Part shown: positions 8,980 through 32,517 of the stretch, one piece after another | How positions within the stretch are numbered: position 1 is the stretch's first letter | Layout: each line of letters opens with the position of its first letter | NCBI GenBank assembly: GCA_020343595.1 | Contig: CP070802.1 | Location: forward strand, 1,044,814 to 1,077,330 | DNA: 32,517 bases | From: a candidate division WOR-3 bacterium | GTDB taxonomy: Bacteria; Hydrothermota; Tepidihabitantia; SM23-42 | Direction: 5' to 3' | Position numbers and translations under genes: made by a program | Notes under the pieces: generated by a model | Database searches by the model: none | What the model was told of the DNA's origin: nothing | Seen by the model: only the letters and a program-made list of their open reading frames with translations

Positions 8980-8981
8980 GA

Positions 8982-11711: not shown

Positions 11712-14138
11712 CTATTTCTTTTTCTTGGCTTTTGCCTTTTCTTCTTCTTCGGTCAGGACCTTGATCGTATGTTCGATCTCGTCTTTTGTCACTTTCTTTC
11801 GTAATTCTTCGATATCCTGCATCGTTTTTTGAAAACGTTGTCCTTCTGCGGCGCTTATCCATTCGAGCAGCAATCGTTCGGGCCGGATTTCCCATTTTTC
11901 CAGTTTATCCCAGAGTTTTTCGACACGCTTCTGGGTCCAGCGGTTCGCGTCGATATAGTGGCAGTCAACGTAGTGACATCCGGATACGACGACCATGGGC
12001 GCGCCCTTTTTGAAGGCGTGGAGGACGAATTTTTCATCGACCCTGCCACTGCACATCGTTCGGATCAAACGCTGGTTCGGCGGATATTGAAGTCGCGCGC
12101 CGCCGCATGTGTCGGCGCCAGCATAGGAACACCAGTTGCAGGCAAAGACGACTACCTTCTCCTGAGGATCTTCAGCAAGGTGGGCGTCGATTTGAGTTAT
12201 GAGCTGTTCATCCGTGAAGTGCTTCATTGTCAAAGCGCCAAACCGGCACTCTGCGGCACATGTACCGCATCCCTTGCACAGGGCTTCGATATAGGAAATC
12301 GTCTTCTTTTTCGGATCAACCGTGAATGCTCCGTATGGACACACCCTGGAACATGTTGCACAATATCTGCAAAGATCAGTATTCAACGTGGATGTGATCG
12401 CTTCCAGTTTTACCTTCCCTGCAGAAAGCAGTGTTTCGGCTCTGGCCGCGGCCGCGCTTGCCTGGGTCACCGAGTCCTTGACGTCCTTCGGTGCCTCGGC
12501 ACACCCTGCAAAATAGATCCCGGTCGACGGCGCATCCACCGGTTTTAGTTTCGGGTGCGCTTCCATGAAGAAGCCGTCCGGCGTTTTTGAGAGCGTGAGC
12601 AACTGTTGAACCTCGGGCATATCGAGTCGAGGGGTTACGCCGACAGACAGCACCATCATGTCGAATTCATGTTCTTCGATCTTGTTGGAGGTGGTGTCTT
12701 CGACCATCACCTTCAGGTTGCGGGATTTGGGGTCTTCGGCGATCTCTCCGGGAATGCCCCTGATGTACTGAACCCCTGCTTCCTTGCTCCGTTTGAAGAG
12801 GTCCTCGAAACCCTTGCCGAACGCCCGTATATCAATGTAGAAAACCTTTGCCTGGATATCCGGATAGTGGTCTTTCAGCAGCAGTGTGTCCTTGATCGTA
12901 TTCATACAGCAAATATTACTGCAGTACGGCTTACCGATCTTTTCACAGCGCGAGCCCACGCATTGTACAAAACCCACCGTCTTCGGCCTCTTCCTGTCGG
13001 TAGGACGGATGAAGTGACCGTCAGAGGGCCCTCCGGCTGACAACAGCCGCTCAAATTCCATACTCGTTACGACGTTTTCGTATTTCGTGTAGCCGTATTC
13101 CTGCAAAATTACCGGGTCGAATACGTCCATTCCTGTTGCTACGATTACGGTGCCGACCTTGAATTCGAGCGTTTCGTCTTTTGCATCGTAGTCAATGCAT
13201 TTCTTGTCGCATTTTTCGGCGCACTTGCCGCAGGCAATTGGATTGGTGCCCAGACAGCTTTCCATATCGATCAGAGATGCCGACGGCACGGCCTGGGGGA
13301 ACGGGATGTAAATGGCTTTTCTTGACGATAACCCCTGCTGGTACTCATCCGGAACGACGACCGGACAAACTTCGGCACAATCGCCGCATGCGGTGCACTG
13401 TGTCTCGTCTACGTAACGTGTTCTCTTGAGAACCTTAACGTCGAAGTTACCGACGTATCCTTTGATCGACTCGACTTTGCTATTGGTTAGGAGCTTTATT
13501 TTGGGATGTCGACCGACATCCATCATCTTCGGGCCGAGTATTCATATCGCGCAATCCATCGTCGGATACGTCTTCGCCAGCTTGGACATCAAGCCGCCAA
13601 GCGATGGTTCCTTCTCGACGAGGTATACCTGGTAGCCAGCGTCAGCCAGATCGAGCGCCGACTGCATCCCGGCTATCCCACCACCGATCACCAGAGTTGC
13701 TTTTTCGACTGGTATTTCCTTTTCATCCTGGGGTTGCAGGTACCGAGCTCGGGCCACGTACGCCTTCATGATATCCTTGGCTTTCGTCGTTGCTGCCTCG
13801 CGGTTGCCCATGTGGACCCACGAGCACTGCTCCCGGATATTCGCCATGTCAACCAGATATGGATTCATACCCACCGAAGCGACGCATTCCCTGAAGGTTG
13901 GTTCGTGCATGCGTGGCGAGCAAGCGGCGACGATCACCCTATCGAGTTTCTCTTCCTTGATCGCCTTCTTGATTTCGGCTTGGCCGGGTTCCGAACACAT
14001 GTAGCGGTTCTTGGTGCTGTACACGACATTCCCGAGCTTCTTGGCATCCTCGACGACAGTGTCGATATCGACTGAGCCGGCAATGTTTGTGCCGCATTCA
14101 CAGACAAAAACGCCGATCTTCAAATCATCCTTCGGCAT
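11712..14138 (-). CDS. hdrA: Selenocysteine-containing HdrA fused to C-terminal MvhD (~808 aa, Sec199)
   Basis: ORFs 13542..14147 and 11712..13526 are in one frame joined by TGA 13542-13544 (TMDCAI-U-ILGPKMMDVGRHP). VFVCECG, GGGIAG, QCVGSR..YCSNICC, ferredoxin motifs, C-terminal CNWCSYAGAD/GCHYVDCHY. Confidence 0.92.
13504..13521 (-). promoter_or_regulatory. Putative bacterial SECIS element
   Basis: GGAUGUC-GGUC-GACAUCC perfect 7-bp stem starting 20 nt after the UGA. Confidence 0.8.
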
Positions 14139-14160
14139 CTTGATCACCCCCTTTCTGGGT

Positions 14161-14339
14161 AAATTCTAATATCTAATTTCGAAATTCGAAATAAATCCGA
14201 ATTACCAAAAACCAAATTCCAAAAAACATAGTTCAATGTGCCATTCAATAGGCAAACAATCTCCCGAGGCAATAATATTGAATATTGGGATTTTGAATTT
14301 TGATATTGTTTAGAATTTGGGATTTCGTATTTGGTATTT
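14161..14339. repeat. Imperfect inverted repeat built of 7-bp units (two 60-nt arms, 59-nt spacer)
   Basis: Left arm 14161-14220 and reverse complement of right arm 14280-14339 are each 4 heptads + AAAY + 4 heptads, consensus about AAATTCC. Confidence 0.85.
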
Positions 14340-14352
14340 TCTGGAGCAATGT

Positions 14353-15237
14353 TCATGCTTTTGCACTTTCCTTTATTTTTTCCAACACTTTGTCGGCTTT
14401 GATCCGGTGAGTATGTAGACCCACTTGTTCTGGCTCCAGTCCCTGGGCAAGACCCAGAAGTTGAAACAGGTAGATCACCGGAATGTTGTAAGTTTTTCCT
14501 TTTTTACGGGAAATCAAAATCTGTCCAAGATCAAAGGAAGAAAAGCACGTCGGACAGACAAGTCCCATGCAATCGGCGCCGCTTTCTTCGATCGAGGCGA
14601 AGATTGTCTCGGTCATTTCAAGAGGCAGCTCTTCATCCATACATCCCTTGCCGCAGCACAGGAGTTTCTCTCTGTGGTCAAGGGGTGTAGCACCCATCGC
14701 GGCGACGAAATCGTCGAGGATGCTGGGATAGTCGGCATCATCAACATGCATGATCTGGCTCGGCTTTAGTATGTGGCAACCATAGTGGATGGCGACGGTC
14801 ACGCCGTCGAGTGGTCGCTTGATTGACTTCTTCACAACATCAAGGCCTAATGTGTCCCGGATCAAAACGACCGCATGGTTAATTTGCGCGGTGCCTCTGT
14901 ATTCTTTGTTTATTTTCTTCAGCCGCCGGTTCACTTCTGCCTTTGCTTCAGGATCTTCGTCGAGTGTGTATTTGGCTTCCTTCAGAGTGGAAATGCAGCC
15001 CGAGCACATGGTGATGACATCAAGACCCATTTCCTCGGCTATTGCCAGATTACGAGCAGCGATCGTCAGCCACTTGATCTTATCGCGGGCTTTGAAATAA
15101 ATAGGGTCAGGGCAGCATGTGAAACCGTCGACGTCGACTAGTTCGACACCAAGGTTAGGTAGAGTTTTTCTGATTGCGAGTTCCATCTGCGGATACTTGA
15201 GGGGCATCATGCAGCCCCAAAAAGGAATTACCTTCAT
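14353..15237 (-). CDS. hdrB: Heterodisulfide reductase subunit B
   Basis: Two CCG domains: FWGC..CCPDP..CSGC and HYGCH..CCG..CPTC. Confidence 0.92.
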   Translation of the reverse strand: MKVIPFWGCMMPLKYPQMELAIRKTLPNLGVELVDVDGFTCCPDPIYFKARDKIKWLTIAARNLAIAEEMGLDVITMCSGCISTLKEAKYTLDEDPEAKAEVNRRLKKINKEYRGTAQINHAVVLIRDTLGLDVVKKSIKRPLDGVTVAIHYGCHILKPSQIMHVDDADYPSILDDFVAAMGATPLDHREKLLCCGKGCMDEELPLEMTETIFASIEESGADCMGLVCPTCFSSFDLGQILISRKKGKTYNIPVIYLFQLLGLAQGLEPEQVGLHTHRIKADKVLEKIKESAKA

Positions 15238-15240
15238 GGT

Positions 15241-15741
15241 TTATTTATCATCCTTTGTTACACTCTGCGGGTCTTCGAGTATTTCCTTCAGCTCGTCGAT
15301 CGGTATGGTTTTGAGCGGAGGAAGACCCAGCTCCTGCCTCCGTCTGCTAACAGCTGATGTAACCGTGACGCTGACGCCGGTTTGCGCTATATTCTCCGAG
15401 AGTTTCGCAAGACTTGCCGGTGCTTTCTGTCGCTGTACGGCCATATTCTTTAAGGCGATGATTACTTCGATCGGACGGACATCCTGCGGACAGCGCTCAT
15501 AACATGAATAGCAGTTCGTACACAGCCATATTGGTGAATCTTCACCGGTCAATGCTTCTTCCATGCCCAGCAGCGTCTTTAACAGAATGACGCGGGGGTT
15601 GAATTCCTCGGTGAATCGTGCCGCCGGGCACACCGCAACGCATGCGCTGCATTGGTAGCAGTAGTTGTGGTGTTTGCCACCCTGGATTTTATTCAGTTTC
15701 TCACGAAATCGAAAGTCAACCTTTATTTTCTCCTTGGCCAT
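15241..15741 (-). CDS. hdrC: Heterodisulfide reductase subunit C
   Basis: CYQCSACVAVCP and WLCTNCYSCYERCPQ; adjacent to hdrB. Confidence 0.92.
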   Translation of the reverse strand: MAKEKIKVDFRFREKLNKIQGGKHHNYCYQCSACVAVCPAARFTEEFNPRVILLKTLLGMEEALTGEDSPIWLCTNCYSCYERCPQDVRPIEVIIALKNMAVQRQKAPASLAKLSENIAQTGVSVTVTSAVSRRRQELGLPPLKTIPIDELKEILEDPQSVTKDDK

Positions 15742-16889
15742 TAAGTATCCTCCAATGCATCGGCGATCAGCGTAACCAACTGGATCGTCTTGATCTTTGC
15801 CTCTTTGCCGGTCTTTTCATCGTTCATAGCGCACTGGAAGTGTATCTCACATTTAGGACAGGAGAGAACCAGTAGATCAGCTTTGGTTTCTTTTGCCTCG
15901 GTGAGCCGGGCCCGTTGGATGCTCTTTGAATAGGTCGAACAGTTCATCCATGCGCTGACGCCACAGCATATCGCGCGCTCTCGACTCCGCGTCATTTCGT
16001 TCAAGCTCAATTCCGGGACAGCAGCAATGGCTTTCCTTGGTTCATCATAGATTCCAAGGTGCCTGCCGAGCCGGCAAGGATCCTGAAAGGTTACAACTTT
16101 TTTTAGATTCTTGAATTTCAATTTCCCGTCGGATATGGCGCCGCTGATTGTCTCGGTGATATGCTCGACATCGAAATCAGTACTGAAATACTTGGGATAA
16201 TCGATTTTGAAGGTGCGATAACCTTCCGGGCATGAGAAGACGATTTTCTTGGCACCGGATTTCTTTATCTCTTCGATGTTGTGCCGTGCAAGTTTCTCAA
16301 AATTCTCCATGTCACCGCTCCAGAGGAGGTCATGACCACAACATCTTTCCTGGGGAAGGACAACCGGCGTAATACCCAAATGATTGAGGATCTTTATACT
16401 TGATCTGGCGGCCTGAAGCGTGTTGACCTTGATGTCGCTGAACAGAATATCGAAGTAGGGCAGACAGCCGACAAAATAAAGCAACTCACCTTTCTGTGTT
16501 GTTTTCAGGTTGCTGTCAATCCAATCGAGGCGTTTTTGTTCCAGCTCAGGTGTTGTCATTATGCGCATCAACGATTGTGCTGCGCCGCCGTGGGAGCAGA
16601 GTGCTTGCTCCCCGATCTTTTTTGCTTCAAGGCGCGTCGTTAGCGTCAGGCCGATGTATTCGATCGCGGCCGGGCAACGTTCATCACATAACTTACAGGT
16701 CAGACATGCCCAAATATTCTTGTCCTTCAATAGATCGAGATCGCCGCTCCTTATTGCTTTGTTCACTAGTATTCGCGGTGAATATCCATGGTTGTACCGT
16801 GATACCGGACAGGTACCCGTGCACTTGCCGCATTCCATGCACAGATATGCTTTTGAATCCTTGATGGCTTTGGCGATCTTGCTATTCAT
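15741..16889 (-). CDS. HdrD/GlpC-like Fe-S oxidoreductase (2x[4Fe-4S] + two CCG domains)
   Basis: CMECGKCTGTCP, CLTCKLCDERCP, FVGC..CCGH..CPEG, DPC..CCG..CPKC. ATG 16889 overlaps the mvhD stop. Confidence 0.88.
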   Translation of the reverse strand: MNSKIAKAIKDSKAYLCMECGKCTGTCPVSRYNHGYSPRILVNKAIRSGDLDLLKDKNIWACLTCKLCDERCPAAIEYIGLTLTTRLEAKKIGEQALCSHGGAAQSLMRIMTTPELEQKRLDWIDSNLKTTQKGELLYFVGCLPYFDILFSDIKVNTLQAARSSIKILNHLGITPVVLPQERCCGHDLLWSGDMENFEKLARHNIEEIKKSGAKKIVFSCPEGYRTFKIDYPKYFSTDFDVEHITETISGAISDGKLKFKNLKKVVTFQDPCRLGRHLGIYDEPRKAIAAVPELSLNEMTRSRERAICCGVSAWMNCSTYSKSIQRARLTEAKETKADLLVLSCPKCEIHFQCAMNDEKTGKEAKIKTIQLVTLIADALEDT

Positions 16890-17388
16890 TTTCAATCGCT
16901 TCGCTGATGGCACCCAGCCGTTTCTTTATTGACGATGGTCCGAGCCTTCGGATCGTATCGGTGAATTCCTGGGCGACCCTTGCGAATTTGGTCGCTTCAG
17001 CCGATGATATCCAATCGAGTTTGAGACGTTCCTTCTCGATGCCGAGCATCTCGGTGAGTTTCTCGGTCACCTTGTGCACATCCGCGGCTTTTCGCGCGCC
17101 GAACATGTAGTGGCAGTCCTCAAAATGGCAGGTGGCAACAAGAACGCCGTCCGCCCCCAGTTCGAAGGCTTTCAATACAAAGGATGGCGTCACGCGCCCG
17201 CCGCACATCACCCTGACGATCTTTATGTTCGTTGGGTACTGCAACCTGGAGACCCCGGCACCGTCTGCTGCCGGGTAAGAACACCAGTTACAGCAGAAGG
17301 CAACGATCTTGGGTTCGAAGCCTTTGCTGGAGCGTCGGGTAGTTGAACGGCCGGATCGCTTCTTCGTTTTCTTAGCAGCTTGTTTCAT
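16882..17388 (-). CDS. mvhD: MvhD-like [2Fe-2S] protein with basic N-terminal extension
   Basis: FCCNWCSY, VRVMCGGRV, CHFEDCHY, WISSAE. Confidence 0.92.
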   Translation of the reverse strand: MKQAAKKTKKRSGRSTTRRSSKGFEPKIVAFCCNWCSYPAADGAGVSRLQYPTNIKIVRVMCGGRVTPSFVLKAFELGADGVLVATCHFEDCHYMFGARKAADVHKVTEKLTEMLGIEKERLKLDWISSAEATKFARVAQEFTDTIRRLGPSSIKKRLGAISEAIENE

Positions 17389-17450
17389 CGCATCTCCATG
17401 AGTTGAGTGCTAACAGCAGTATAGGATTATTCTTCTGCATCAACATGCGA

Positions 17451-20400
17451 TCATCCTTCAAACAACGCCTCTAATTGAGCTTCGATCTGTTCGCTTCGGA
17501 AGTGCTTGAGGTCGATGGCGCCGGTTGGACATGCAGCGACACAAGTACCGCAACCCTTACAGAGCGCTTCATTGACGCGTGCGGCAAAACCGCCGTCTTC
17601 TTTTTCAACCAATTCTATTGCGCGGAACTCGCAGACTTCGGCACACCGGCCGCAGCCGCGGCAATACTCTTCGATCACCGTCGATGTTATCGGTGCCAGG
17701 GTGATCTTATCGCGGCTGAGCAAGGCAGCAACTTTGGATGCAACAGCAGACGCCTGGGAGATCGAATCACCGATATCCTGGGGGAACTGACAACAACCAC
17801 ACAGGAAAACGCCTTCGACCGTCGTTTCCACGGGACCAAATTTCGAGTGACGTTCCAGGAAGAATTTATCGGGACCGCGCGGAACCTTGAATAATTCGGA
17901 AAGATGGGCGGAGTCGGCGGCGGGAACCATTCCCACCGAAAGCACGACGAGGTCGACCGGAATGGTAATGTCGGCATCGATATCCGACGACGGGATGGTG
18001 ACGGCTTCTGCTCTGCCCTTGCCAGTGATTGCCGGCTCGCCTTCGTACGGCAAGAAGAGGACACCAAGTTCCCTTGCCTTGCGATACATCCGTTCGGCGC
18101 CTTTTGAATACACCCTGACGCCGCGGTTGAGAATTGCCACATCGATTCCCCTTTCCCTCAGATAGATCGCCTCCTTTATCGCTGCCTGGCAGCAATAGCG
18201 CGAACATCCAGGGTTTCCGTCGTCCCCTCGCGAACCGACACACTGGAAAAAGGCGACGGATCTTATGTTATCGATATCGCCTGAAAGTATCTTCTGTTCC
18301 AACTCCATGTTGGTTACGATATTCGGGAACTTGCCGTAGCCAAAGCACTTTTTTGGATCATAGAGTGCCGATCCAGTGGCTAGCACGATAGCGCCGACCG
18401 TATATTCATTTTCCTTTGCTTCGCGTTTCACCTTGACCTGGAAGTTGCCCACGTAACCAGTGACATCAAGGAGTTCCGTGGAAGTCAGTAGCTCACCGCC
18501 TGCTTTTGTGAATTCAGCGGTGAGTTTCTCCATGATATCCTTTCCTTTACGAAAACTTGGATAAATGCTCGATAGATGCGATACGAGGCCACCGGGAACC
18601 GGCAATTTCTCGATTACTTTGACGCTAAAGCCGCGCTGTAACAAATCGATCCCGCATCGCAGACCAGTGATGCCGGCACCGATGATGGCGACATCCCGGT
18701 TAACCGATAGTTCTTTCATGAAAAGCGGCGCCAGCTTTCGGACCCGCGCTACCGACATCCTGACCAGCTCCTTTGCCTTGTCGGTCGCCTTTACCGGTTC
18801 CTTCTGATGCACCCAGGAACATTGATTTCTGATATTCGCGATGTCAAAGAGATACGGATTGAGACCAACTGCAGTCAATGAATCCTGGAAGCTCATTTCA
18901 TGGGTCTTGGGTGTGCATGCGGCGACGACGACCCGGTTCAGTCTGTGCTCGGCGATCCTCTCCTGAATCTGATGTTGGGCTGTCTCGGAACATGCGAAGG
19001 TGTAGTCTTCTGCGAATACGACATCGGGCAGCATCTTTGCGTATTCGACCACGCCTTTGACATCAACCACCTTTGAGATGTTCGGGCCGCAGTGGCAGAC
19101 AAAGACACCGACCCTTGGTGGGCCCGACACGTCAATTTGTTCGATCTCTTTCTCCTCGATTGGAAGTTCATGCCCTTCCAGGAAACACGCCGCCTTGACC
19201 GCGGCACCACTGGCCTCGGCGATCGAATCGGTGATGTCCTTTGGTCCAGTAGCACAACCGCAGACAAGAATACCTTTCTTCGTTGATTCGAGTGGCATGA
19301 TCGCAGGCTCTGAATTCTTGAAAAAACCATCGTCATCGATCTCGATATCGAGCACTCCGGCCAGTTCTCCGCAGCCTTTCGAGGGGATCAATGCCGATGA
19401 TAGGCATACGGCATCGAACGTCATCTTTCCCGAGTGTCCTTTCTCGTCTTCGTAATGTATGATCAAATTCCCCTGGCCATCGTCAATTACCTTTGAGGGT
19501 TTGCCCTTGACATACTCCACGCCCTTCTCGAGAGAACGATTGTAGAATTCCTCAAATCCCTTGCCAAAGGCTCTGATATCAATGTAGAATACGACAATCC
19601 TGGCGTCTGGATAGTGCTCTTTCAGGACCAGGCTGTCCTTGATGGTGTTCATACAGCAAATACGGCTGCAATAGTTGATATCATGACGCATGTTACGAGA
19701 GCCGACGCACTGGATGAACGCAAAACGCAAGGGCTCCTGTAATTCCTTTCCAAGCGGGAGCTCACCGGAACTCGGGCCATCTTCGCTCATGAGCCTTTCG
19801 ATCTCAAATGAAGTATAGATATTCTTGAAGCGTTTGTATCCGTACTCACTGGCCTCCTTTGGATCGAGATAATCGACACCGGTGGTCACGATGATCGACC
19901 CTACGTCCAGATCGACAAATTCGTCGGTCATATCGTGGACAATTGCATTCGGTTCGCACACCTTCACGCATTCCATGCATTCTGAACAGCCGGCACAGCT
20001 GAGGCATCGATTCGATTCTTTCTTTGCCTGTTCTTCTGAGAATCCCTGGGCGACTTCTTCGTAACTATTCTTCGCCTTATCCACGTCCAGCATGGGCATA
20101 GCCGTTCTTTTCTCAGCCCTTATGTCCTCTGGAATTTCAATATCCTCATCCTTCACCCGATCATCTTTTTTCTTTCTGTTTTCCTTGAGATCCACGCCTC
20201 TGATGAACCGATCGATCGATTCGGCAGCTTCTTTTCCTGCAGCAATCGCCTCGATAACCGTTGCCGGACCGGTGACCGCATCACCTCCGGCAAAGATACC
20301 GGGAATGCTCGTTTGCAGCGTATCCGGGTCCACTGCGAAAGTTCCCCAACGGGTCAACTCAAAATTCTCTTCTTTGGCCAGGAATGAAATGTCGGCCGCC

Positions 20401-21848: not shown

Positions 21849-21851
21849 AGT

Positions 21852-25304: not shown

Positions 25305-26509
25305 TATGTACTCCCTTTCTTCCACTCAATGATACCACATTTTGTTTCGGTCATCAGAGATGCCTTTTCTGCTGCGGCGAGGATATCATCGGTGTATTCG
25401 ACACCGTTGTCGCCGTGATGCAAGAATAATACGTTTGCCTTTCCATAGGTATTCCGTTCAACTTCCTGAACGATCTGCCCGAAATTCATCTCAGGAACCA
25501 CAAATGCCTTCACCTGTTCTGCGAGTTCAGACACCCTCGCGTCCGGGAAAGGCCAAACCGTATTCAGTTTCAGGCTGCCGATCTTCATACCCTTAGCGCG
25601 CGCCTGTTCAACTGCCTTGAGCGCAGCCCTCGAAGACGATCCGTATGAGATTATCACTACTTCCGCGTCATCTGTTTTCGTTTCCTGGATGTCGACTATC
25701 TCATCCACATAATCGCGTATCTTCTTTACGAGTGGATGGACATTATACTCCTGGCATTCTTCAAACATGATCGGATAACCCCGGTCGTCATGGGTCAGGC
25801 CGGTGACATGAAAGCGGTAGCCCTGTCCGATATCGACCATTCGCGGGACAAAATCCTTATCCCTCTTGAATGGCAGATAACTGTCGCGCGGCCCATCAAA
25901 GTACCGGCGTGGTTCGATATGAATCTGGTCGGCAGAAGGAATGACAACTGATTCTTTCAGTTGAGCGATATGAGCGTCTGACATCAGGGCGACGGGAACA
26001 CGGTATCGTTCCGAGAGATTAAAGGCTTTGATCGTGAAATCGAACATCTCCTGGGCCGAGCTGGGAGCGTACGCGATTATCTCGTAATCGCCATGAGATC
26101 CCCAACGGGACTGCATGACGTCAGCCTGTGCCGGGTGTGTCGGCAGGCCGAGGCCCGGTCCGACCATCTGGACTTCCACTATTACACATGGCGTTTCAAG
26201 CATGACACCGAGTCCTAGATGTTCCATCATTAGTGAGAACCCCGGGCCTGAAGTTACGGTCATTGATTTCTTACCGGTCCAGGACGCGCCGAGAACCGCA
26301 GCGAGGGCAGAGACTTCGTCTTCCATCTGGATGAAAGTCGCGCCAACCTCAGGCGCTCGCTGTAGAAATCTTTGCGAGACCTCCAATGAAGGCATGATGG
26401 GGTAGAGGCCCAAGAAACGACAGCCGGCTGCTAATGCTCCTTCCGCGCATGCCTCATTGCCGCTGAGAATGTGAGAGCCGGTTAACACCCCGGTCTTATC
26501 TGATTTCAT
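25304..26509 (-). CDS. 2-oxoacid oxidoreductase alpha-like subunit with altered substrate-binding residues
   Basis: GNEA, QMEDE, TSGPG and RWGSHGD retained; YPIMPSLE replaces YPITPSTE and QMVGPGLG replaces QRGGPSTG. Confidence 0.88.
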   Translation of the reverse strand: MKSDKTGVLTGSHILSGNEACAEGALAAGCRFLGLYPIMPSLEVSQRFLQRAPEVGATFIQMEDEVSALAAVLGASWTGKKSMTVTSGPGFSLMMEHLGLGVMLETPCVIVEVQMVGPGLGLPTHPAQADVMQSRWGSHGDYEIIAYAPSSAQEMFDFTIKAFNLSERYRVPVALMSDAHIAQLKESVVIPSADQIHIEPRRYFDGPRDSYLPFKRDKDFVPRMVDIGQGYRFHVTGLTHDDRGYPIMFEECQEYNVHPLVKKIRDYVDEIVDIQETKTDDAEVVIISYGSSSRAALKAVEQARAKGMKIGSLKLNTVWPFPDARVSELAEQVKAFVVPEMNFGQIVQEVERNTYGKANVLFLHHGDNGVEYTDDILAAAEKASLMTETKCGIIEWKKGST

Positions 26510-26598
26510 CTAGCTCCTTTCTAACTCCACTTTTCATCCTCTGTATACTGGGAAAGGGTTGTTCAGGGACCAATAATATTCTCGATAGAAATGCGCCT

Positions 26599-28254
26599 TT
26601 AGAATACGTCTATCATTCTGGCTAGTGCAGCCTTGCCTCGATAGTCCGGTAAAATGATCGGTGCTCTCCTCGTACACTTCACTCCCGCCTGTTCAAGATT
26701 CTTAACGTATCTCTTCACGTGATCCAGTGCTATCTTGTTTTCACCCTTGTGCGCTTTCACGTACTCCGCAGTGCTCATTCCGGCACGCCGTCCGAAGACA
26801 AGGCAGTCGAGGGTAGAATTTCCCATCAAGCGGTTCTTGCCGTGCACCCCTCCTGACACTTCACCGGCTACCCATAATCCATCGACATTTGTCCTTCCTG
26901 CTGGGTCCGTTTCAATACCGCCATTTTGATAATGGAGGGTCGGGAAAACCAGTACCGGGTCCTTTCGTATGTCGATATCATACCGCTTGTACATCCTGAT
27001 CATTCCCGGGAATGCTTTCTCTATATAACCTTTGCCGTTCTTGATCTCGATCAAGGGTGTATCGAGCCAGACCCCGCGGAGCCCGGTTGGTGTGACGATG
27101 CCCTTATTGCGGACATAGCATTCTCTGATGATCGCCGATGCCTCGACGTCTCTCGGCTCCAGCGGGTAAACGAATGCTTCACCGTCTGCGTTCACCGGCT
27201 GCGCGCCGCTGCCCCGTAGTTTCTCGGTGAGCAGATAACCAACGATCTGGATCGGGTAGGCGGCTCCGGTTGGATGGTATTGCACAGCATCGATATCACG
27301 TAGTTTGGCCCCCACTCGGTATGCGAGCACGACGCCATCAAAGGTCGCGCCGTAGTGATTGGTCGTGGGAAATCCTCTTATGTGTAATCTTCCATAACCG
27401 CCGGTGGCGATGATCGTCGCCTTGGCTCTGACGATCTTATACTCACCGGTTTCGAGATTCCACAAAACCGCGCCGGTCACACGGTCGCCATCGGTTAAAA
27501 GTTCGATCGCGGGATAATGTTCCAGATAGGGAATTTCACGAGTCCTGAACTCATCTCTCAGTACCCTGAATTCTTCAAGTCCCGTGTAGTCACGGCACGA
27601 ATGCATACGCTTCACTGATAGCCCGCCCGCGAGTTTTTCCGCAAGGTCGCCACCTTCTTCACGGTCGAAGATCGCACCCAACTCACAGAGCCATTTCATG
27701 ATCAGCGGGGCATCTTCCACTAATGCTCTGGCGACGTCTGGCTTGTTCTCAAAATGACCTCCACCGATCGTATCGATGTAGTGTTTCATGACCGAGTCGA
27801 CTTCACGATCGGCCGCTTGTGTGCCACCTTCGGCCATTATCGAATTGGCATCACCGTGCCTCAATTTATTAGTCAACAATATTCGTTCGGTAGCAATACC
27901 GCTGTCATTTGCCCACAAAGCCGCAGAGGTACCAGCAAGGCCGCCGCCGATGATCAGTATGTCGGTGTCGTAATCGACCTGGGAGATATTCACCTCGTCC
28001 TGTTCGATCAGTGGGTATGCCTCGAGAAGATCGGCAACTTCGTTCGGTGCAAGGTTACCTTTGTTGGGTCCGACCTGAAGTTCGCGCTTACCGCCAGGAG
28101 CATAATCCGGGTGGATCCGGAGGACTTCGTCCCGTTCTTTCATCGTCATGGCGGGTGGTGTGTAGTTGATTCTCTTCTCACGTGTTTTGGTGACCTTGTC
28201 GATCTCTTTTCTGATATTCTCAGGGTAACCTTCAATGTATTTTAGTTCTGCCAT
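26599..28254 (-). CDS. Fumarate reductase/succinate dehydrogenase-family flavoprotein (TfrA/NadB-like, non-covalent FAD)
   Basis: IIGGGLAG, SIMAEGG, ATGGYG, QYHPTG, TEKLRG, PRD, HYQNGG, HGKNRLMGNS. Confidence 0.88.
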   Translation of the reverse strand: MAELKYIEGYPENIRKEIDKVTKTREKRINYTPPAMTMKERDEVLRIHPDYAPGGKRELQVGPNKGNLAPNEVADLLEAYPLIEQDEVNISQVDYDTDILIIGGGLAGTSAALWANDSGIATERILLTNKLRHGDANSIMAEGGTQAADREVDSVMKHYIDTIGGGHFENKPDVARALVEDAPLIMKWLCELGAIFDREEGGDLAEKLAGGLSVKRMHSCRDYTGLEEFRVLRDEFRTREIPYLEHYPAIELLTDGDRVTGAVLWNLETGEYKIVRAKATIIATGGYGRLHIRGFPTTNHYGATFDGVVLAYRVGAKLRDIDAVQYHPTGAAYPIQIVGYLLTEKLRGSGAQPVNADGEAFVYPLEPRDVEASAIIRECYVRNKGIVTPTGLRGVWLDTPLIEIKNGKGYIEKAFPGMIRMYKRYDIDIRKDPVLVFPTLHYQNGGIETDPAGRTNVDGLWVAGEVSGGVHGKNRLMGNSTLDCLVFGRRAGMSTAEYVKAHKGENKIALDHVKRYVKNLEQAGVKCTRRAPIILPDYRGKAALARMIDVF

Positions 28255-28268
28255 TACTCACTCCTTCC

Positions 28269-29027
28269 TTATTCCGGCTCTTTTTCGCGTTCGGTGTATA
28301 TCTTTCGAAGTTCTTCGGTCGAGCAACTGACAAGCTTGTTCATTTCGTCGGTGAATTTTCCTTCGGTGATTTCCTTTACCCTCTTTCTGAGGTGGTCCGG
28401 TACACCCAGGCCATAGCGCCCGAACATCCTTCTGCCGAGCTGGGCAACATGGTATTGTACGATCTCAGCAGGGCATCTCATGGCACAGAGGCCGCACTGA
28501 ATGCAGTCAAAAGAGATGTCTGACAGCCCGTCAAAATCACCGCGTATCGCAGCCTGTACGTAATCCATGACTTCAAGATCTTGCGGGCAAGCCTTCGTGC
28601 AAGTGTTGCATGATACGCATCTTGTCACTTCCGGATAATACCTGATGAAGACCGATGCTTCGTAAGGTTCCTTTGTAACGTCATAGATCGCTTTTTCAGC
28701 AGGAGTGAAAGGTATTTGGACCAGATACATTCCATCTTCGGCCCGGGTCTGGCATGCCATACCGGTCTGCAACTTGTAATCACCTTTCTTTCTGAAAACA
28801 GTAGCGCAGGCACCACAGAATCCTTGCCGACAGCCGACACCGCGCACAAACTTGTAGCCGGCGTACTCCATTGCCGTCAGTATTGTGAGGTCTGCCGGGA
28901 CCTTGTAGGCTTTTCCCATGATGTGAATCGTGATCCAGTTTTCTATGTCCTTCGCGTCGATTCCTGTCGTTGCTGCCTTATTCGCTTCTGCGATTCTGTC
29001 CATGATTGGGCTTTTATTGTCTTCCAT
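28269..29027 (-). CDS. SdhB/FrdB-like iron-sulfur protein ([2Fe-2S] + 2x[4Fe-4S])
   Basis: GCRQGFCGAC...ACQT, CVSCNTCTKACP, CIQCGLCAMRCP. Confidence 0.85.
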   Translation of the reverse strand: MEDNKSPIMDRIAEANKAATTGIDAKDIENWITIHIMGKAYKVPADLTILTAMEYAGYKFVRGVGCRQGFCGACATVFRKKGDYKLQTGMACQTRAEDGMYLVQIPFTPAEKAIYDVTKEPYEASVFIRYYPEVTRCVSCNTCTKACPQDLEVMDYVQAAIRGDFDGLSDISFDCIQCGLCAMRCPAEIVQYHVAQLGRRMFGRYGLGVPDHLRKRVKEITEGKFTDEMNKLVSCSTEELRKIYTEREKEPE

Positions 29028-29038
29028 TATTTACTCTC

Positions 29039-29986
29039 CTAATCTTCGATCAACGATTTGCTCTTCAGCAACGGCCTCGGATCGACGTAATTCTGCTCAA
29101 ATCCAAAGACATCCTTGTCCATGCCGAATGCGATCGTCATCAATTGAGTAATGTAGAATACCGGCATTTCTTCAAAATCAGGGTGCTTTTCCTTTACGGC
29201 CTGCTGACGCTGGTCCAGATTGAAAGCACACAGCGGACAGACCGTTGTCAATGCCTCTGCGCCCTTTTTGCGTGCATGCGATAGTATGTCATATGCTAAT
29301 TCAGCGACAATATATTTGTCTTTGACGGTCTGATAACTGCCGCAGCAAACTTTCTTGTATGGCGTGTCAATGACCGATACGCCGAGAGCTTCGAGAATAT
29401 CTTTCTGTATCGTCGGATCTTCGGGATCATCGATCGCGATCTCCTTAGGCCGCAGGATCATACAGCCGTAATACGGGGCGATATTCAGATCCTTCAGCGG
29501 TTTGGTTACCTTCTCGCGAATCTTCTCATAGCCCAGTGATTTCAATAACTCCAGGAAGTGTAGTACCTCGACATTGCCCTTGTAGTCTTCCTCCCGGTAC
29601 ATGAGTTCGTTGATCTTTTGCAGATCTTCAGCATTCTCCTTCATCCGCCGATTTGTGCTCTTCAGAGTATTGAAACACATTGAGCATAGAGTCACCAAGC
29701 GATTCTCATTCTTGACCAGCCCGTAATCATTCATTTCCTGAACCCGGATGAAATTCCGTACGGAAGCCACGTGATGGATCAGGTCATCTTGAGCAAGCGA
29801 GAAGACCGTGCCGCAGCAATTCCATCGGGGGATCTCGAGCAATTCTACACCGAGCGCGCGCGCCGTAGCGATCGCTGAGTTTTCAAAATTCTTGGCCGTC
29901 GTCTTCAACGTGCATCCCGGGTAATAGGGGAATTTCATATTGCCGGAGGATGTTGATTTTGTTTCTTTAGTATTGGTCGGATTCAT
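29039..29986 (-). CDS. hdrB: Heterodisulfide reductase subunit B
   Basis: YYPGC..WNCCG..CSMC and YYGC..CCG..CPLC; AGGAGG SD. Confidence 0.92.
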   Translation of the reverse strand: MNPTNTKETKSTSSGNMKFPYYPGCTLKTTAKNFENSAIATARALGVELLEIPRWNCCGTVFSLAQDDLIHHVASVRNFIRVQEMNDYGLVKNENRLVTLCSMCFNTLKSTNRRMKENAEDLQKINELMYREEDYKGNVEVLHFLELLKSLGYEKIREKVTKPLKDLNIAPYYGCMILRPKEIAIDDPEDPTIQKDILEALGVSVIDTPYKKVCCGSYQTVKDKYIVAELAYDILSHARKKGAEALTTVCPLCAFNLDQRQQAVKEKHPDFEEMPVFYITQLMTIAFGMDKDVFGFEQNYVDPRPLLKSKSLIED

Positions 29987-29996
29987 GTTCTTCCTC

Positions 29997-30404
29997 CTAT
30001 CCTGTGAATTTTCGGCAGGCGCTAACCAGCGCGATTTGCGGTAAACAGGCTATCTCTTCCTTGGGGATCGCTTTGATATCGATGTGATCTACGGCTTGTC
30101 GCAAGATGATCTGTCTCAGTGCCTCTGCCACTTTGGAGACGTCGATCTGGCGGGGACATCTGACCGTACACGTGAAGCATGAAGCACATACCCAGATCGC
30201 TTTGTGATCCAGCACCTCTTTCTGGCCCAGTTGAACGAGTCTCATCATCTGTGACGGCGTAATGTCCATTTCCGTAACGAGTGGGCAACCACCGGAGCAA
30301 GTGCCGCACTGTTCACAGAGGGTGATAACCTCTCCGCTAAGTTCATTGACTTTGTTCAAGAACTTTTCGTTATCGGGTGATATCTCAATCTTCTTGATCA
30401 TCAT
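29997..30404 (-). CDS. hdrC: Heterodisulfide reductase subunit C
   Basis: CEQCGTCSGGCP and WVCASCFTCTVRCP. Confidence 0.9.
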   Translation of the reverse strand: MMIKKIEISPDNEKFLNKVNELSGEVITLCEQCGTCSGGCPLVTEMDITPSQMMRLVQLGQKEVLDHKAIWVCASCFTCTVRCPRQIDVSKVAEALRQIILRQAVDHIDIKAIPKEEIACLPQIALVSACRKFTG

Positions 30405-30835
30405 GCCTCCTTGGCGGCTGCCTGTGTTTTCAATTCGAGTGGTCCCAATGCAGACATTTCGTCTATGAATTCGTTGACGACCTTCTGAAATTTACCGCCT
30501 TCGTTAGCCGAGATCCATTCCAGCCGTACACGTTGAGGAGCGATACCGAGTTCTTTCAGCAGGTTCTTGAGTAGTGCGATCCTTTTATGAGTACGGTAGT
30601 TTCCTGATACATAATGGCAGTCACCCGGATGACAACCAGCCACCAATACACCCCAGGCGCCTTTTTTCAAGGCATCAAGTATCAGCTCCGGGTCTATCCG
30701 GCTTGAACACATTGCTCGGACAATTCTGAAATGCGGTTTCATTTGGAGCCTCGAAGTACCGGCCGCGTCGGCTCCAGCATAGGAACACCAATTACAGCAG
30801 AATGCAATTATTTTGGGGACGGCGTTACTCTTCAT
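30401..30835 (-). CDS. mvhD: MvhD-like [2Fe-2S] protein
   Basis: FCCNWCSYAGAD, MCSSR, GCHPGDCHY, WISANEG; ATGA overlaps at both ends. Confidence 0.93.
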   Translation of the reverse strand: MKSNAVPKIIAFCCNWCSYAGADAAGTSRLQMKPHFRIVRAMCSSRIDPELILDALKKGAWGVLVAGCHPGDCHYVSGNYRTHKRIALLKNLLKELGIAPQRVRLEWISANEGGKFQKVVNEFIDEMSALGPLELKTQAAAKEA

Positions 30836-32517
30836 TTTTCCTCCTCTCCTAATGCTGCGCCAACCATGGCCTTTAACTGTCTATTCATGAACCAATGCTG
30901 CTGTGAGGCTCCAGAAGGACATGCTGCTGAACACGAGCCGCAACCCTGACAGAGAATTTCGTTCACCTTGGCGACCCTCTTGTCATCCTCGAGTTCGGTC
31001 TTTACGGCGTCATACGGGCAGACACTGACACACGTTGCACAGCCGCTACAGAGGTCTTCATCGACCACAGCGGTGATCGGTTCTACCGCGTACACTCCTC
31101 GGTTCATCAAACGTATTGCCCTTGAGGCAGCGGCACTCGCTTGTGCTACCGTGTCAGGTATGTCCTTGGGTCCCTGGGCGCAACCACATATGAACACGCC
31201 GTCGGTTAGGGTGTCTACCGGTTTGAACTTCGGATGTGCTTCCTGGAGAAAACCGCCCGGACTGCGCGTCATTCTGAGCACATCGGCGATCTTGCGAGTT
31301 CCTTCTCCAGGTTGCATACCGACCGATAACACGACCAGGTCGAATTCTGATTCAATTATCTGGCGTGCTAGCGTATCCTCGACTTTTAGCATGACTTTCT
31401 TGGTATCGGGGTCTTCGATCACTTCTGCGACCCTTCCGCGAATGAACTTGACACCGGTCCTTTGTGCCCTTTTGTAGTATTCTTCAAAGCCTTTACCGTA
31501 CGCCCGGAGATCGGTATAGAAGACATAGACGTCCTTTTTAGGATCGGCTCGCTTCAAGAGCTGCGACAGCTTCGTTGCATACATGCAGCAAATTCTTGAA
31601 CAATATTCATTACCGATCTGCTCGTCCCGAGAACCGACACATTGGATGAAGGCTATCCTTTTCCCGATTTTTCTTGTCGGCCGACCTTCAGCATCGTGGA
31701 CTATCATGCGTTCCATTTCCAGGGACGTTATGACGTTTTCGTTCGTACCGAAGCCGTATACTTTTTTCTCGCGGGCATCAAAGATATCGTAGCCGGACGC
31801 AACGATTATGGTATCGACCTTGATCTCTACTTTCTCGGGTTTCTGCTCAAAATCCACGGCGTCGTGCGGGCAGACTTTCTTGCAATTACCACACTTTCCT
31901 TTCTGGAAGTATATGCAGTTTGGTTCGTCGATTAGGTATTTATACGGGACGGCAAACTCAAAGGGAACATATATCGCCCGGCGGGTTGTCAGTCCCTGTT
32001 CGAATTCATTGGGCAATTTCACGGGGCACTTTTCTTCGCAGATACCGCATGAGACACAATTATCATTGACATATCTGGGTCTTTTGTTAACGGTCACCTC
32101 GAAATTGCCGAGAAAGCCAGAGATCTTCTCCACTTCCGAATTGGTGAACAGAGTGATGTTGGGATGACCCGGGACATCAGCCATCTTTGGAGAGAGAATA
32201 CAGGCTGCGCAATCTTCGGTCGGAAAGGTTCTTGACAGCTTTGCCATCTTTCCGCCGATCGTTGGTTCCTTCTCGACAAGAAAGACCTCGAAACCGGCAT
32301 CACCGAGATCAAGAGCCGCCTGGATGCCGGCAATGCCAGCGCCGACAACGAGTACTCGTTTACCGATGGGCATGGTCTTTCTTTCGAGGGATTCATCGAG
32401 TTTCGCCTTCGCGATGGCGATGTTCACCAGATCCTTTGCCTTTTGGGTTGCCAGTTCTGGTTGGTCATAGTGCGGCCAAGAGCACTGTTCGCGGATGTTT
32501 GCCATCTCGAATACGTA
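30832..32517 (-). CDS. hdrA: Heterodisulfide reductase subunit A, Cys-type, 5'-truncated by window edge
   Basis: Frame open to the window end; NIREQCSW, GAGIAG, TFPTEDCAACILSPKM, QCVGSR..YCSRICC, ferredoxin motifs. Confidence 0.93.
   Translation of the reverse strand, partial: YVFEMANIREQCSWPHYDQPELATQKAKDLVNIAIAKAKLDESLERKTMPIGKRVLVVGAGIAGIQAALDLGDAGFEVFLVEKEPTIGGKMAKLSRTFPTEDCAACILSPKMADVPGHPNITLFTNSEVEKISGFLGNFEVTVNKRPRYVNDNCVSCGICEEKCPVKLPNEFEQGLTTRRAIYVPFEFAVPYKYLIDEPNCIYFQKGKCGNCKKVCPHDAVDFEQKPEKVEIKVDTIIVASGYDIFDAREKKVYGFGTNENVITSLEMERMIVHDAEGRPTRKIGKRIAFIQCVGSRDEQIGNEYCSRICCMYATKLSQLLKRADPKKDVYVFYTDLRAYGKGFEEYYKRAQRTGVKFIRGRVAEVIEDPDTKKVMLKVEDTLARQIIESEFDLVVLSVGMQPGEGTRKIADVLRMTRSPGGFLQEAHPKFKPVDTLTDGVFICGCAQGPKDIPDTVAQASAAASRAIRLMNRGVYAVEPITAVVDEDLCSGCATCVSVCPYDAVKTELEDDKRVAKVNEILCQGCGSCSAACPSGASQQHWFMNRQLKAMVGAALGEEEK

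Follow-up and report, generated by a model that had tools for sequence, protein, structure and literature searches.

In hydrogenotrophic methanogens the MvhAGD-HdrABC complex, whose structure is known, acts as a bifurcating H2:CoM-S-S-CoB/ferredoxin oxidoreductase. For bacteria, bifurcation to fumarate and ferredoxin has been proposed for a gene cluster of the form korABCD-tfrAB-flxABCD-hdrABC in Candidatus Endoriftia, the Escarpia symbiont and Thioflavicoccus mobilis (Rubin-Blum 2019, PMC6315080); co-expression supports this mechanism for the Endoriftia cluster (Mitchell 2024, PMC11636981), and a 2026 survey of autotrophs restates it and finds the co-location only in Endoriftia among the autotrophs studied (PMC13147460). 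The same survey, citing Miura 2008, describes FrdABCDE of Hydrogenobacter thermophilus as a soluble, NADH-dependent, irreversible fumarate reductase of five subunits (PMC13147460). The HdrL proteins of Desulfobacterium autotrophicum, finally, are large fusions of HdrA with a glutamate synthase small subunit that carry an NADH site; selenoproteins occur among them, and mvhD comes after every copy (Strittmatter 2009, PMC2702500). Here we examine a 32,517-nt stretch of DNA (the window) from a metagenome-assembled genome (MAG; GCA_020343595.1, here G000) of a candidate division WOR-3 bacterium, in which Hdr genes adjoin those of an SdhAB-type enzyme and of a five-gene 2-oxoacid:ferredoxin oxidoreductase (OFOR). 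We consider it highly probable that the Hdr module is electronically coupled in some way to the other two, and put at about even the chance that the cluster encodes an electron-bifurcating, membrane-free fumarate reductase that would at the same time supply 2-oxoglutarate synthesis with reduced ferredoxin. A preliminary description had named the cluster its best candidate for an undescribed system, which it is not: korABCD and tfrAB with flxABCD-hdrABC, with the same proposed mechanism, are in print in the three symbiont and survey papers cited above.

Open reading frame (ORF) listing and Pfam and NCBIfam scans show 17 tightly packed genes, all on the minus strand, from position 11712 to the end of the window (Table 1; coordinates are those of the window). 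In order of transcription these are HdrA1-MvhD1-HdrC1-HdrB1-SdhB-SdhA, then OFOR alpha1-beta1-alpha2-beta2-gamma, and then HdrL-MvhD2-HdrD-HdrC2-HdrB2-HdrA3/MvhD fusion. Genes overlap or lie at most 14 nt apart at 13 of the 16 junctions, the remaining gaps being 89, 62 and 205 nt. The parts that the preliminary description had listed, on one strand and with many overlaps, were all recovered: three HdrA-family proteins (HdrA1, HdrL and HdrA3/MvhD) with four GxGxxG HdrA-type FAD modules, two of them in HdrL; three MvhD domains (MvhD1, MvhD2 and the C-terminus of HdrA3); two HdrC/HdrB pairs; an HdrD-like protein; SdhA and SdhB; and the OFOR. Two details of the gene list change: the two HdrA3 ORFs appear to be one selenocysteine (Sec) protein, and HdrL probably starts at 21848, not at 21662.

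Table 1. Genes of the cluster in order of transcription, and two genes that follow it
Feature	Position	Strand	Basis of assignment
HdrA1, bifurcating-type HdrA, cut at 5' end	30832..32517	-	NF040770 (HdrA2), 731 bits, profile 92-644
MvhD1, [2Fe-2S] adaptor	30401..30835	-	PF02662 (FlpD), 184.5 bits; 4-nt overlap with HdrA1 stop
HdrC1, 2x[4Fe-4S]	29997..30404	-	TIGR03290, 73 bits, below cut-off of 160; two CxxCxxCxxxC motifs
HdrB1/SdhE-like, two CCG domains	29039..29986	-	PF02754 (CCG) twice
SdhB-like iron-sulfur subunit	28269..29027	-	Pfam Fer2 and Fer4 dicluster; one [2Fe-2S] and two [4Fe-4S] motifs
SdhA/TfrA-like flavoprotein, 95-aa N-terminal extension	26599..28254	-	PF00890, 219.8 bits
OFOR alpha1	25304..26509	-	NF006412, 499 bits, above cut-off of 411
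OFOR beta1, putative catalytic copy	24426..25325	-	PF02775, 112 bits; NF007207 (OGOR beta), 248.7 bits, below cut-off of 364
OFOR alpha2	23184..24425	-	NF006412, 500 bits, above cut-off of 411
OFOR beta2, degenerate copy	22411..23187	-	PF02775, only 45 bits
OFOR gamma	21852..22469	-	PF01558, 110 bits; NF006323, 186 bits, below cut-off of 235
HdrL, ~1465 aa, read as a selenoprotein	17451..21848	-	NF040770, 908 bits in 4 stretches; NF009410, 583 bits, above cut-off of 516
MvhD2	16882..17388	-	PF02662, 168 bits
HdrD-like (HdrC-type dicluster and two CCG)	15741..16913	-	PF02754 and Fer4_8; NF004898 (TfrB), 145 bits, below cut-off of 385
HdrC2	15241..15741	-	TIGR03290, 107.8 bits, below cut-off of 160
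HdrB2	14353..15237	-	TIGR03288, 306.8 bits, below cut-off of 345; CCG twice
HdrA3-MvhD fusion, 811 aa, read as a selenoprotein	11712..14147	-	NF040770 (HdrA2), 1169 bits, above cut-off of 1100, profile 1-776
Two conserved hypothetical genes, 146 and 158 aa	10455..11455	-	no Pfam match; 3' of the cluster

Aligned to E. coli FrdA (structure 1kf6), SdhA keeps the fumarate-site residues H327, T343, E344, R347, R368, H441 and R475, all invariant in the alignment, while the histidine that binds FAD covalently (His44 in E. coli FrdA numbering) is Asn137 and is an asparagine in 7/7 aligned sequences. In E. coli FrdA, work with His44 mutants reportedly ties a non-covalent FAD to the reductive direction, and the asparagine would favour fumarate reduction over succinate oxidation. 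The best NCBIfam match of SdhA is TfrA (NF004900, 307.8 bits against a cut-off of 718), followed by NadB and SdhA/FrdA models; no AprA model, the analogy there being adenylylsulfate (APS) reductase/Qmo, is among the 25 best of 34 NCBIfam matches. We also considered L-aspartate oxidase and rejected it, given that fumarase, SucCD and OFOR are co-located with SdhA and that G000 has a separate NadB-like paralogue (35% identity), the only other SdhA-family gene found with the SdhA query. The 12 cluster cysteines of SdhB (Cys 66/71/74/92, 137-147 and 175-185, with two CxxCxxCxxxCP motifs for the [4Fe-4S] clusters) are invariant in 24 sequences. No membrane-anchor gene lies next to SdhBA in the window or in seven relatives, the SdhE model NF042965 gives HdrB1 150.8 bits against a cut-off of 500, and no SdhF was recognised, so that the marks of a classical or type E succinate:quinone oxidoreductase, namely the covalent-FAD histidine and an anchor or SdhE/F, are all lacking.

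Compared with methanogen TfrAB, the locus has neither a TfrA-type flavoprotein at equivalog score nor a single SdhB-CCG polypeptide of the TfrB kind. The TfrB model NF004898 matches SdhB (profile 19-84), HdrC1 (131-221) and HdrB1 (252-485) consecutively, with scores of 37-48 against a cut-off of 385, and SdhB together with HdrB1 appears to be a split TfrB, HdrB1 answering to its C-terminal half and HdrC1 being an extra Hdr link. HdrB1 scores 169 on the equivalog HdrB model (cut-off 345), and the ten cysteines of its two CCG motifs are invariant in 24 sequences. Since it is 44-79% identical to the SdhB-adjacent HdrBs of other phyla and only 28-30% identical to three paralogues in its own genome, it seems to be part of an orthologous group of its own, tied to SdhB. 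The predicted complex of HdrB1 and SdhB scored 0.39 (best control, 0.00), with contact agreement between runs of at least 87% and a partner pLDDT (predicted local distance difference test) of at least 77. Of 80 solved complexes used for calibration, 58 passed the mark, as did 2 of the 110 mismatched pairs; only 7 of those 80 solved complexes had scores of at most 0.60, as had both passing mismatches. The prediction lends weak support to docking of the two proteins.

On the Hdr side, HdrA1 has a FAD Rossmann fold with inserted and C-terminal Fer4 domains and, with its N-terminus on a neighbouring contig, the full domain set of a bifurcating HdrA (TrxR-like FAD fold; N-terminal, inserted and C-terminal ferredoxin domains). 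At the site where HdrA3 has its UGA, HdrA1 carries Cys instead of Sec. By motif the set is complete, with two CCG motifs (10 Cys) in HdrB, two [4Fe-4S] motifs in HdrC, and an MvhD. The preliminary description had seen no MvhAG, Fdh or Flx genes in the window, and a Pfam scan of the 28 main ORFs likewise found no hydrogenase, Fdh or Flx gene; a dedicated donor module for this Hdr set (MvhAG, Fdh, FlxABC or an F420 site) is thus absent from the window, and HdrL is the only candidate.

The association of Hdr with a soluble SdhAB-type enzyme and an OFOR, which had been suggested from this one locus, holds in a synteny search across many phyla. We searched one genome per species with an SdhA alignment as query and examined the best 80 of at least 578 relatives, labelling genes by BLASTP to the window proteins and clustering the remainder, representatives of which were scanned with Pfam; labels are best hits. 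At least 6 kb upstream of SdhA were available at 49 of the 80 loci, and counts refer to genes on the same strand. They should be read with the truncation of loci at contig ends in mind and with the fact that kin are not independent; MvhD is undercounted, as we discarded ORFs with overlaps of more than 60 nt. The SdhA proteins of the 80 loci are 59-89% identical, and depositor labels are both bacterial and archaeal, including Aminicenantes, Stahlbacteria/WOR-3, Eisenbacteria, Acetothermia, Aerophobetes, Sumerlaeota, Atribacteria, Planctomycetota, Spirochaetota, Thermoplasmata, Thermococci and Bathyarchaeia, among others. SdhB is present at 73 of the 80 loci (47 of the 49 with enough flank) and Hdr-type genes at 62 (40 of the 49), SdhBA standing without Hdr at the other 18. 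OFOR genes were found at 28/80 loci (21/49), class I fumarase at 15/80 (13/49) and malic enzyme at 12/80 (11/49), with SucCD-like genes beside the cluster in five. Some donor module accompanies 36 of the 80 (23 of the 49), be it NiFe hydrogenase subunits (14/80; 10/49), Flx-like genes (FlxA-like NAD_binding_1/DHODB, a Fer4_22 protein and an FrhB-like FeS protein; 18/80; 13/49) or an HdrL-like gene (10/80; 5/49). The recurrent order is [OFOR] HdrA MvhD [MvhG MvhA or FlxC B A] HdrC HdrB SdhB SdhA [malic enzyme, fumarase], in which donor genes come after MvhD and sdhB directly follows hdrB. Such synteny points to SdhBA and fumarate, rather than a heterodisulfide, as the likely high-potential acceptor.

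In genome papers on some of these lineages the same Hdr-Mvh genes are interpreted as reductases of disulfide or polysulfide (e.g. 10.1101/207811), and in an Acetothermia preprint Mvh-Hdr is taken to be possibly a polysulfide reductase, with no Sdh/Frd reported. At the Acetothermia-labelled loci studied here, SdhBA and OFOR genes are interleaved with Mvh-Hdr. A phrase search of the literature gave no named "bifurcating fumarate reductase" and no Hdr-Frd, Hdr-Tfr or Hdr-Sdh; PMC8671834 and PMC7325909 hold nothing on an association of Hdr with SdhBA, and a STRING-based preprint merely lists succinate dehydrogenase among HdrA partners (10.1101/2024.09.26.615249).

Within the order, all 41 genomes searched (G000 included) encode an SdhA-like protein, and we inspected 36-40 kb in each of seven relatives. 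One of the same genus (G003) has all 17 genes in the same order. Another of that genus (G007) and one of a different genus (G011) have ferredoxin-HdrA1-MvhD-HdrC-HdrB-SdhB-SdhA-OFOR but lack the module from HdrL to HdrA3, which is therefore a variable addition; right after this core come two small hypothetical genes (G007) or one (G011), and then an aminotransferase/aldehyde dehydrogenase pair. The other four (G012, G022, G028 and G036) have only SdhB-SdhA with no Hdr linkage, among neighbours such as an M42 peptidase, a GltB-like protein, glutamate dehydrogenase (GDH, adjoining SdhBA in G036), a NuoF-GltD fusion and an aconitase-family gene, so that the joining of Hdr and SdhBA in one operon is lineage-specific within the order. 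Elsewhere in their genomes, G012 and G028 have a separate HdrC-HdrB-HdrA-MvhD set of HdrB1 type (44% identity) and G036 has an HdrC-HdrB-HdrL-like set.

Gene content, motifs, conserved synteny, active-site residues and a capacity to decode Sec, all observed directly, are what we have; from them we infer a physical complex, bifurcation, a donor and a direction, in the following manner. The first six genes would encode a cytoplasmic, anchor-free fumarate reductase plugged into an HdrA-type flavin-bifurcation module, in which SdhA (with non-covalent FAD), SdhB and HdrB1 would form the split equivalent of methanogen TfrAB, HdrC1 would connect HdrB1 with HdrA1, and MvhD1 would be the subunit at which the donor docks and electrons enter. 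A mid-potential donor entering via MvhD would reduce the HdrA FAD, from which one electron would pass downhill through HdrC, HdrB, SdhB and SdhA to fumarate and the other uphill to ferredoxin, and the reduced ferredoxin would feed the adjacent OFOR, working as a 2-oxoglutarate synthase. In this way the operon would drive two steps of a reductive tricarboxylic acid (TCA) branch, fumarate to succinate and succinyl-CoA to 2-oxoglutarate, with neither quinones nor a soluble thiol. Here the donor would most likely be NAD(P)H, by way of the co-transcribed Sec-HdrL/MvhD2/HdrD/HdrCB2/HdrA3 module; in other lineages, MvhAG or Flx-like proteins encoded within the cluster would bring in electrons from H2 or NADH, respectively. 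With textbook potentials of +33 mV for fumarate, -320 mV for NADH, -414 mV for H2 and about -500 mV for ferredoxin, bifurcation from NADH or H2 to fumarate and ferredoxin would be exergonic. The preliminary description had instead looked to carbon metabolites as possible partners, which does not agree with the Mvh or Flx genes of homologous clusters or with the Mvh-Hdr and Flx-Hdr sets elsewhere in G000; H2 or NADH would be the usual donor.

Its suggestion that HdrL is a point of entry for NAD(P)H fared better, since a GltD/NfnB-like NAD(P)H module is present. The first HdrA module of HdrL is split by this GltD/NfnB-like FAD/NAD(P)H module, and another HdrA module, a complete one, comes after it; with MvhD2 following 62 nt on, HdrL shows what defines the HdrL type (HdrA parts, a GltD-like NAD(P)H/FAD module and mvhD next to it). 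If the TGA at 21681-21683 is read as Sec, HdrL starts with the ATG at 21848, 3 nt past the OFOR gamma stop, and the 5' extension so gained ("GGGVAG...SMDCTGU") gives the protein the HdrA "DCxxU" site and the GGGVAG FAD motif that it would otherwise lack. In the same way, the ORFs at 13542-14147 and 11712-13526 form one HdrA3-MvhD protein with an in-frame TGA at 13542-13544, located at the HdrA "DCxxU/C" site and kept in G003 and in locus L062. Both read-throughs also occur in G003, and G000 has a tRNA-SeC and a SelB above its cut-off. A 7-bp hairpin lies 3' of the HdrA3 UGA, where a selenocysteine insertion sequence would be sought, and folds no better than shuffles (z = -0.46). On this evidence HdrL and HdrA3 each appear to be a single selenoprotein read through an in-frame UGA. 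The HdrA3 orthologue at L062 (11612-12078 and upstream) has two in-frame TGA codons ("TMDUAIU", against "TMDCAIU" in the window).

As for the OFOR, beta1 has the thiamine diphosphate GDG motif and CxxC cluster ligands. Since beta2 lacks both the N-terminal CxxC ligands and the GDG motif, as it does in 7/7 other two-beta loci, the five-gene enzyme seemingly pairs a catalytic alpha/beta with a conserved non-catalytic one. Models specific to 2-oxoglutarate:ferredoxin oxidoreductase (OGOR) give the alphas 338-341 bits against a cut-off of 579, and the generic 2-oxoacid alpha model is passed; the context with SdhBA, fumarase and SucCD supports 2-oxoglutarate as the probable substrate.

Elsewhere in G000 there are two further complete Hdr sets, HdrC-HdrB-HdrA/MvhD-VhuG-VhuA-like (G000:C1:1506098-1512132) and HdrC-HdrB-HdrA-MvhD-FlxC-B-A-like (C1:415486-422222). 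Flx-like genes occur only at C1:419524-422222, with the HdrCBA-MvhD of their own just named, and at 1877527-1879334, with none in the operon. A class I fumarase and SucCD are also encoded elsewhere, as are citrate synthase, two methylmalonyl-CoA mutases, an FeFe-hydrogenase-like protein and two RnfDs. A row at C1:1645613-1649749 comprises a SucC/SucD-like pair resembling citryl-CoA synthetase (its SucC-like member below and its SucD-like member above the cut-offs of the succinyl-CoA ligase subfamilies), a citryl-CoA lyase (NF004866, 296 bits against a cut-off of 245) and the large subunit of an aconitase-family enzyme. To judge from these assignments it is a citrate-cleavage set of the reductive TCA type known from Hydrogenobacter and the Aquificaceae, in an uncultured bacterium resembling the FCB (Fibrobacterota-Chlorobiota-Bacteroidota) group. 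The asparagine in place of histidine, the fumarase, malic enzyme and SucCD genes co-located with the cluster, and citryl-CoA lyase elsewhere in the genome together suggest a reductive TCA branch. Among quinone markers, MqnA/D (PF02621) was not found and MenA (TIGR00751) reached 61.6 bits against 102, in a MAG that is 93% complete and has a NuoH-like gene, for which reasons this falls short of establishing that quinones are absent. A second FlxA-like/Fer4_22 pair lies next to a gene run that includes this kind of NuoH-like subunit (C1:1870000-1879334), and the run may represent a membrane-bound Nuo/Mbx-type complex with Flx-like input. There is also a further match to the HdrA N-terminus at C1:288617-288931, and the Vhu-like Hdr region is listed more widely as 1506098-1512716.

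Several observations weigh against the bifurcating fumarate reductase. No enzyme of this type is known to have been purified. The core occurs in G007 and G011 without any donor module, HdrL included, and the Mvh and Flx sets of G000 need not serve the operon, since each has its own HdrABC and MvhD. SdhA, SdhB, HdrB1, HdrC1 and the OGOR-specific models all fall below NCBIfam equivalog cut-offs, the complex prediction for these two, HdrB1 and SdhB, lends weak support, and the four relatives with SdhBA alone dispense with the linkage to Hdr. The step from a non-covalent FAD to the reductive direction leans on the work with E. coli His44 mutants, and methylmalonyl-CoA mutase and the amino-acid catabolic genes beside the cluster would fit an oxidative or fermentative role.

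This last point leads to the alternative that survives best, although we still regard it as unlikely: a confurcating succinate dehydrogenase, in which the cluster would run oxidatively and free of quinones in amino-acid or propionate catabolism. Electrons from succinate (through SdhAB-HdrBC) and from OFOR-reduced ferredoxin would merge at the HdrA flavin and leave at mid potential to NAD(P)+ via HdrL or, in other lineages, to H+ via Mvh. The oxidative path yields succinate and ferredoxin in a 1:1 ratio, with the OFOR encoded alongside; HutH and the aldehyde dehydrogenase/class-III aminotransferase pair (kept in G007/G011) lie beside the cluster, GDH lies next to SdhBA in G036, the genome has its two methylmalonyl-CoA mutases and two RnfDs, and many lineages with the cluster are called fermenters by depositors or authors. 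Against such a direction speaks the asparagine in 7/7 sequences where succinate oxidisers have the covalent-FAD histidine, and the conversion of succinate and ferredoxin to 2 NADH would be uphill at standard conditions, by textbook potentials. In addition, the soluble NADH-fumarate reductase of Hydrogenobacter is reported to be irreversible (PMC13147460, citing Miura 2008), and the co-located malic enzyme, fumarase and SucCD, with the citryl-CoA lyase of the genome, fit a reductive branch. The preliminary description had thought of the succinate/fumarate step as possibly part of amino-acid catabolism; the asparagine and the reductive-TCA-type genes point away from succinate oxidation in such a role and towards fumarate reduction. 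A variant to which we assign a small probability makes the donor-less core and Sec-HdrL a reversible three-way hub that, run oxidatively, would pass electrons from succinate and ferredoxin, 1:1, to NAD(P)+. If true, such a hub would allow soluble, quinone-free succinate oxidation, the energetically hardest step of anaerobic amino-acid and propionate oxidation, and would be widespread in uncultured bacteria and archaea.

The donor-less loci could also be taken at face value, the cluster then being a plain sink from ferredoxin to fumarate through HdrA-HdrC-HdrB-SdhBA, with MvhD and HdrA as mere wires, no third partner and no energy coupling. Consistent with this, 26 of the 49 well-flanked loci show no donor, and the bare core of ferredoxin, Hdr, SdhBA and OFOR is found in G007/G011 and at many other loci. 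We think it distinctly improbable, however, as about 0.5 V would be wasted, HdrA1 retains the full bifurcating-type domain set, MvhD is kept, and a hydrogenase, Flx or HdrL module is present in the other 23 of the 49 clusters, typically right after MvhD.

The preliminary description had linked the enzymes by an unidentified thiol/disulfide carrier, and one may picture two enzymes joined by a soluble one, with Hdr reducing the disulfide by bifurcation and a Tfr-like enzyme spending the thiols on fumarate, on the model of methanogen Hdr and Tfr with CoM and CoB. HdrB1 does retain each of the ten cysteines in its two motifs for non-cubane clusters, which make up the disulfide site in HdrB, TfrAB is the closest named family of SdhA, and four relatives of the same order encode SdhBA and the HdrCBA-MvhD set apart. 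Against this, the core operon has a single CCG protein, HdrB1, for both jobs; a free-standing SdhBA would have no thiol-oxidising site, because SdhB has no CCG domain; and sdhB comes right after hdrB in the conserved order. No thiol cofactor pathway turned up, though none was searched for. Such a carrier is not required, and direct electron transfer is the simpler assumption, because SdhB and HdrB1 together equal the fused TfrB of methanogens; we hold the two-enzyme scheme to be very unlikely. Finally, it is hardly credible that separate redox enzymes are merely co-regulated or co-transferred, with SdhAB acting on another dicarboxylate and having no direct electron link to Hdr: all models do score below equivalog cut-offs, the HdrL module is variably present and SdhBA stands alone at 18/80 loci, but one and the same gene order is met again in phyla of bacteria and archaea, with sdhB immediately after hdrB and fumarase, SucCD and OFOR alongside, HdrB1 belongs to an orthologous group tied to SdhB, and start and stop codons overlap.

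The surroundings of the cluster remain to be described. The window is exactly one of the 140 contigs of G000, which were strung together by size with 100-N spacers between them; nothing contiguous can therefore be read past 32517. We rejected the DNA that follows in the G000 file as the neighbourhood of the operon, since it is the next contig of the size-sorted concatenation; the rhamnose, AsnA, OmpA and type IX secretion system (T9SS) genes on it are not operon neighbours. The 5' end of HdrA1, cut off by the contig end, was located by homology at C1:203-3; its first 67 amino acids are 94% identical to the G003 orthologue (650 aa), the window resumes at residue 89, and by DNA alignment to G003 some 61 nt between the contigs are unassembled. 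The right end of the window thus abuts the start of the largest contig (C1:1-917), and the two can be joined. The preliminary description had proposed looking upstream for a hydrogenase, Flx or Fdh. Going upstream from HdrA1 on that contig, a spacer of 415 nt is followed by a gene for a 99-aa 2x[4Fe-4S] ferredoxin (best model OGOR delta, with 73 bits against a cut-off of 125), past which lie divergently transcribed TamB and Omp85 genes; the arrangement is the same in G003, G007 and G011, and in none of these four genomes was a hydrogenase, Flx or Fdh found upstream of the operon. Between 12600 and 32517, neither promoter-like sites (23, with 18.7 expected) nor terminator-like sites (17, with 19.7 expected) exceed shuffles, and none convincingly marks the three larger gaps by sigma-70 rules, which may not fit this lineage.

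Orthologues of the small hypothetical genes 3' of the cluster follow it on the same strand in G003 (the 146-aa one), G007 (both) and G011 (the 158-aa one). Beyond them, an aldehyde dehydrogenase and a class-III aminotransferase gene (7492-10394, plus strand) overlap by 10 nt and converge on the cluster; the position of this pair is kept in G007 and G011, and it may serve a route to succinate by way of gamma-aminobutyrate and succinate semialdehyde. At 12 of the 80 loci, mostly labelled Aminicenantes (L037, L049, L053, L056, L057, L060, L063, L067, L083 and L091 among them), sdhA has a PilZ-domain gene as an immediate neighbour, which hints at regulation possibly linked to cyclic di-GMP.

If the proposed mechanism is true, it bears on how strict anaerobes that have no suitable quinone reduce fumarate, and on the source of the very low-potential ferredoxin that 2-oxoglutarate synthase needs in reductive TCA branches. 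The comparative result may outweigh the single locus: most of the at least 80 loci have SdhA beside Hdr genes, and the donor modules (Mvh, Flx and HdrL) are interchangeable across them. As a candidate for purification and cryo-EM, the enzyme is an obvious choice.

How, then, does the locus compare with known systems? With methanogen MvhAGD-HdrABC it shares the HdrA domain set, MvhD, the HdrC dicluster and an HdrB with two CCG motifs, all models except HdrA3/HdrA2 being below cut-off, and in 14/80 related loci MvhG/MvhA-like genes directly follow MvhD; it differs in having no hydrogenase in the operon and, as its proposed acceptor, fumarate via SdhBA instead of the heterodisulfide. Like Methanothermobacter TfrAB, the best-matching family of SdhA, it is soluble and without a membrane anchor, and TfrB (2Fe-2S, dicluster and two CCG) corresponds to SdhB plus HdrB1; unlike TfrAB, it scores far below the cut-offs, has TfrB in two pieces and adds HdrC, HdrA and MvhD, and CoM and CoB thiols would not be expected in a bacterium. 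Type E succinate:quinone oxidoreductases and menaquinol:fumarate reductases (SdhABE[F]) likewise have an HdrB-like CCG protein in place of haem-b anchors and share the second [4Fe-4S] motif of SdhB, but not HdrC, HdrA and MvhD, and they have the covalent-FAD histidine that is missing here. Hydrogenobacter FrdABCDE, compared by description and not by sequence, is also cytoplasmic and quinone-independent, with extra non-membrane subunits, in a reductive-TCA organism with citryl-CoA synthetase and lyase; no bifurcation has been claimed for it, in contrast to the proposal made here. Its extra subunits resemble GltD and Hdr subunits. In Desulfobacterium autotrophicum, a sulfate reducer, HdrL stands beside dsr, fdh or other genes, whereas here it comes after the genes of an OFOR and of a fumarate reductase; in both cases its function is putative. 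The closest likeness, by gene content and leaving aside the orthology of SdhA and TfrA, is to the tubeworm-symbiont cluster, where genes for an AB-type soluble fumarate reductase, an OGOR and HdrABC/MvhD-type proteins are interleaved as they are here, and where bifurcation to fumarate and to a ferredoxin that feeds the OGOR is, as here, a proposal. The symbiont cluster contains FlxABCD as NADH donor, ATP-citrate lyase, PntAB and Rnf, none of which is within the cluster described here, the Flx-Hdr set and citrate-cleavage genes (of citryl-CoA type) being elsewhere in G000; conversely, only here does TfrB appear as separate SdhB and HdrB1, with a Sec-HdrL/HdrD/HdrA3 module and a five-gene OFOR attached. 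Thus the locus is a variant of an already proposed system, distinguished by a donor-less core, an apparently split TfrB, the Sec-HdrL/HdrD/HdrA3 addition and a degenerate beta2.

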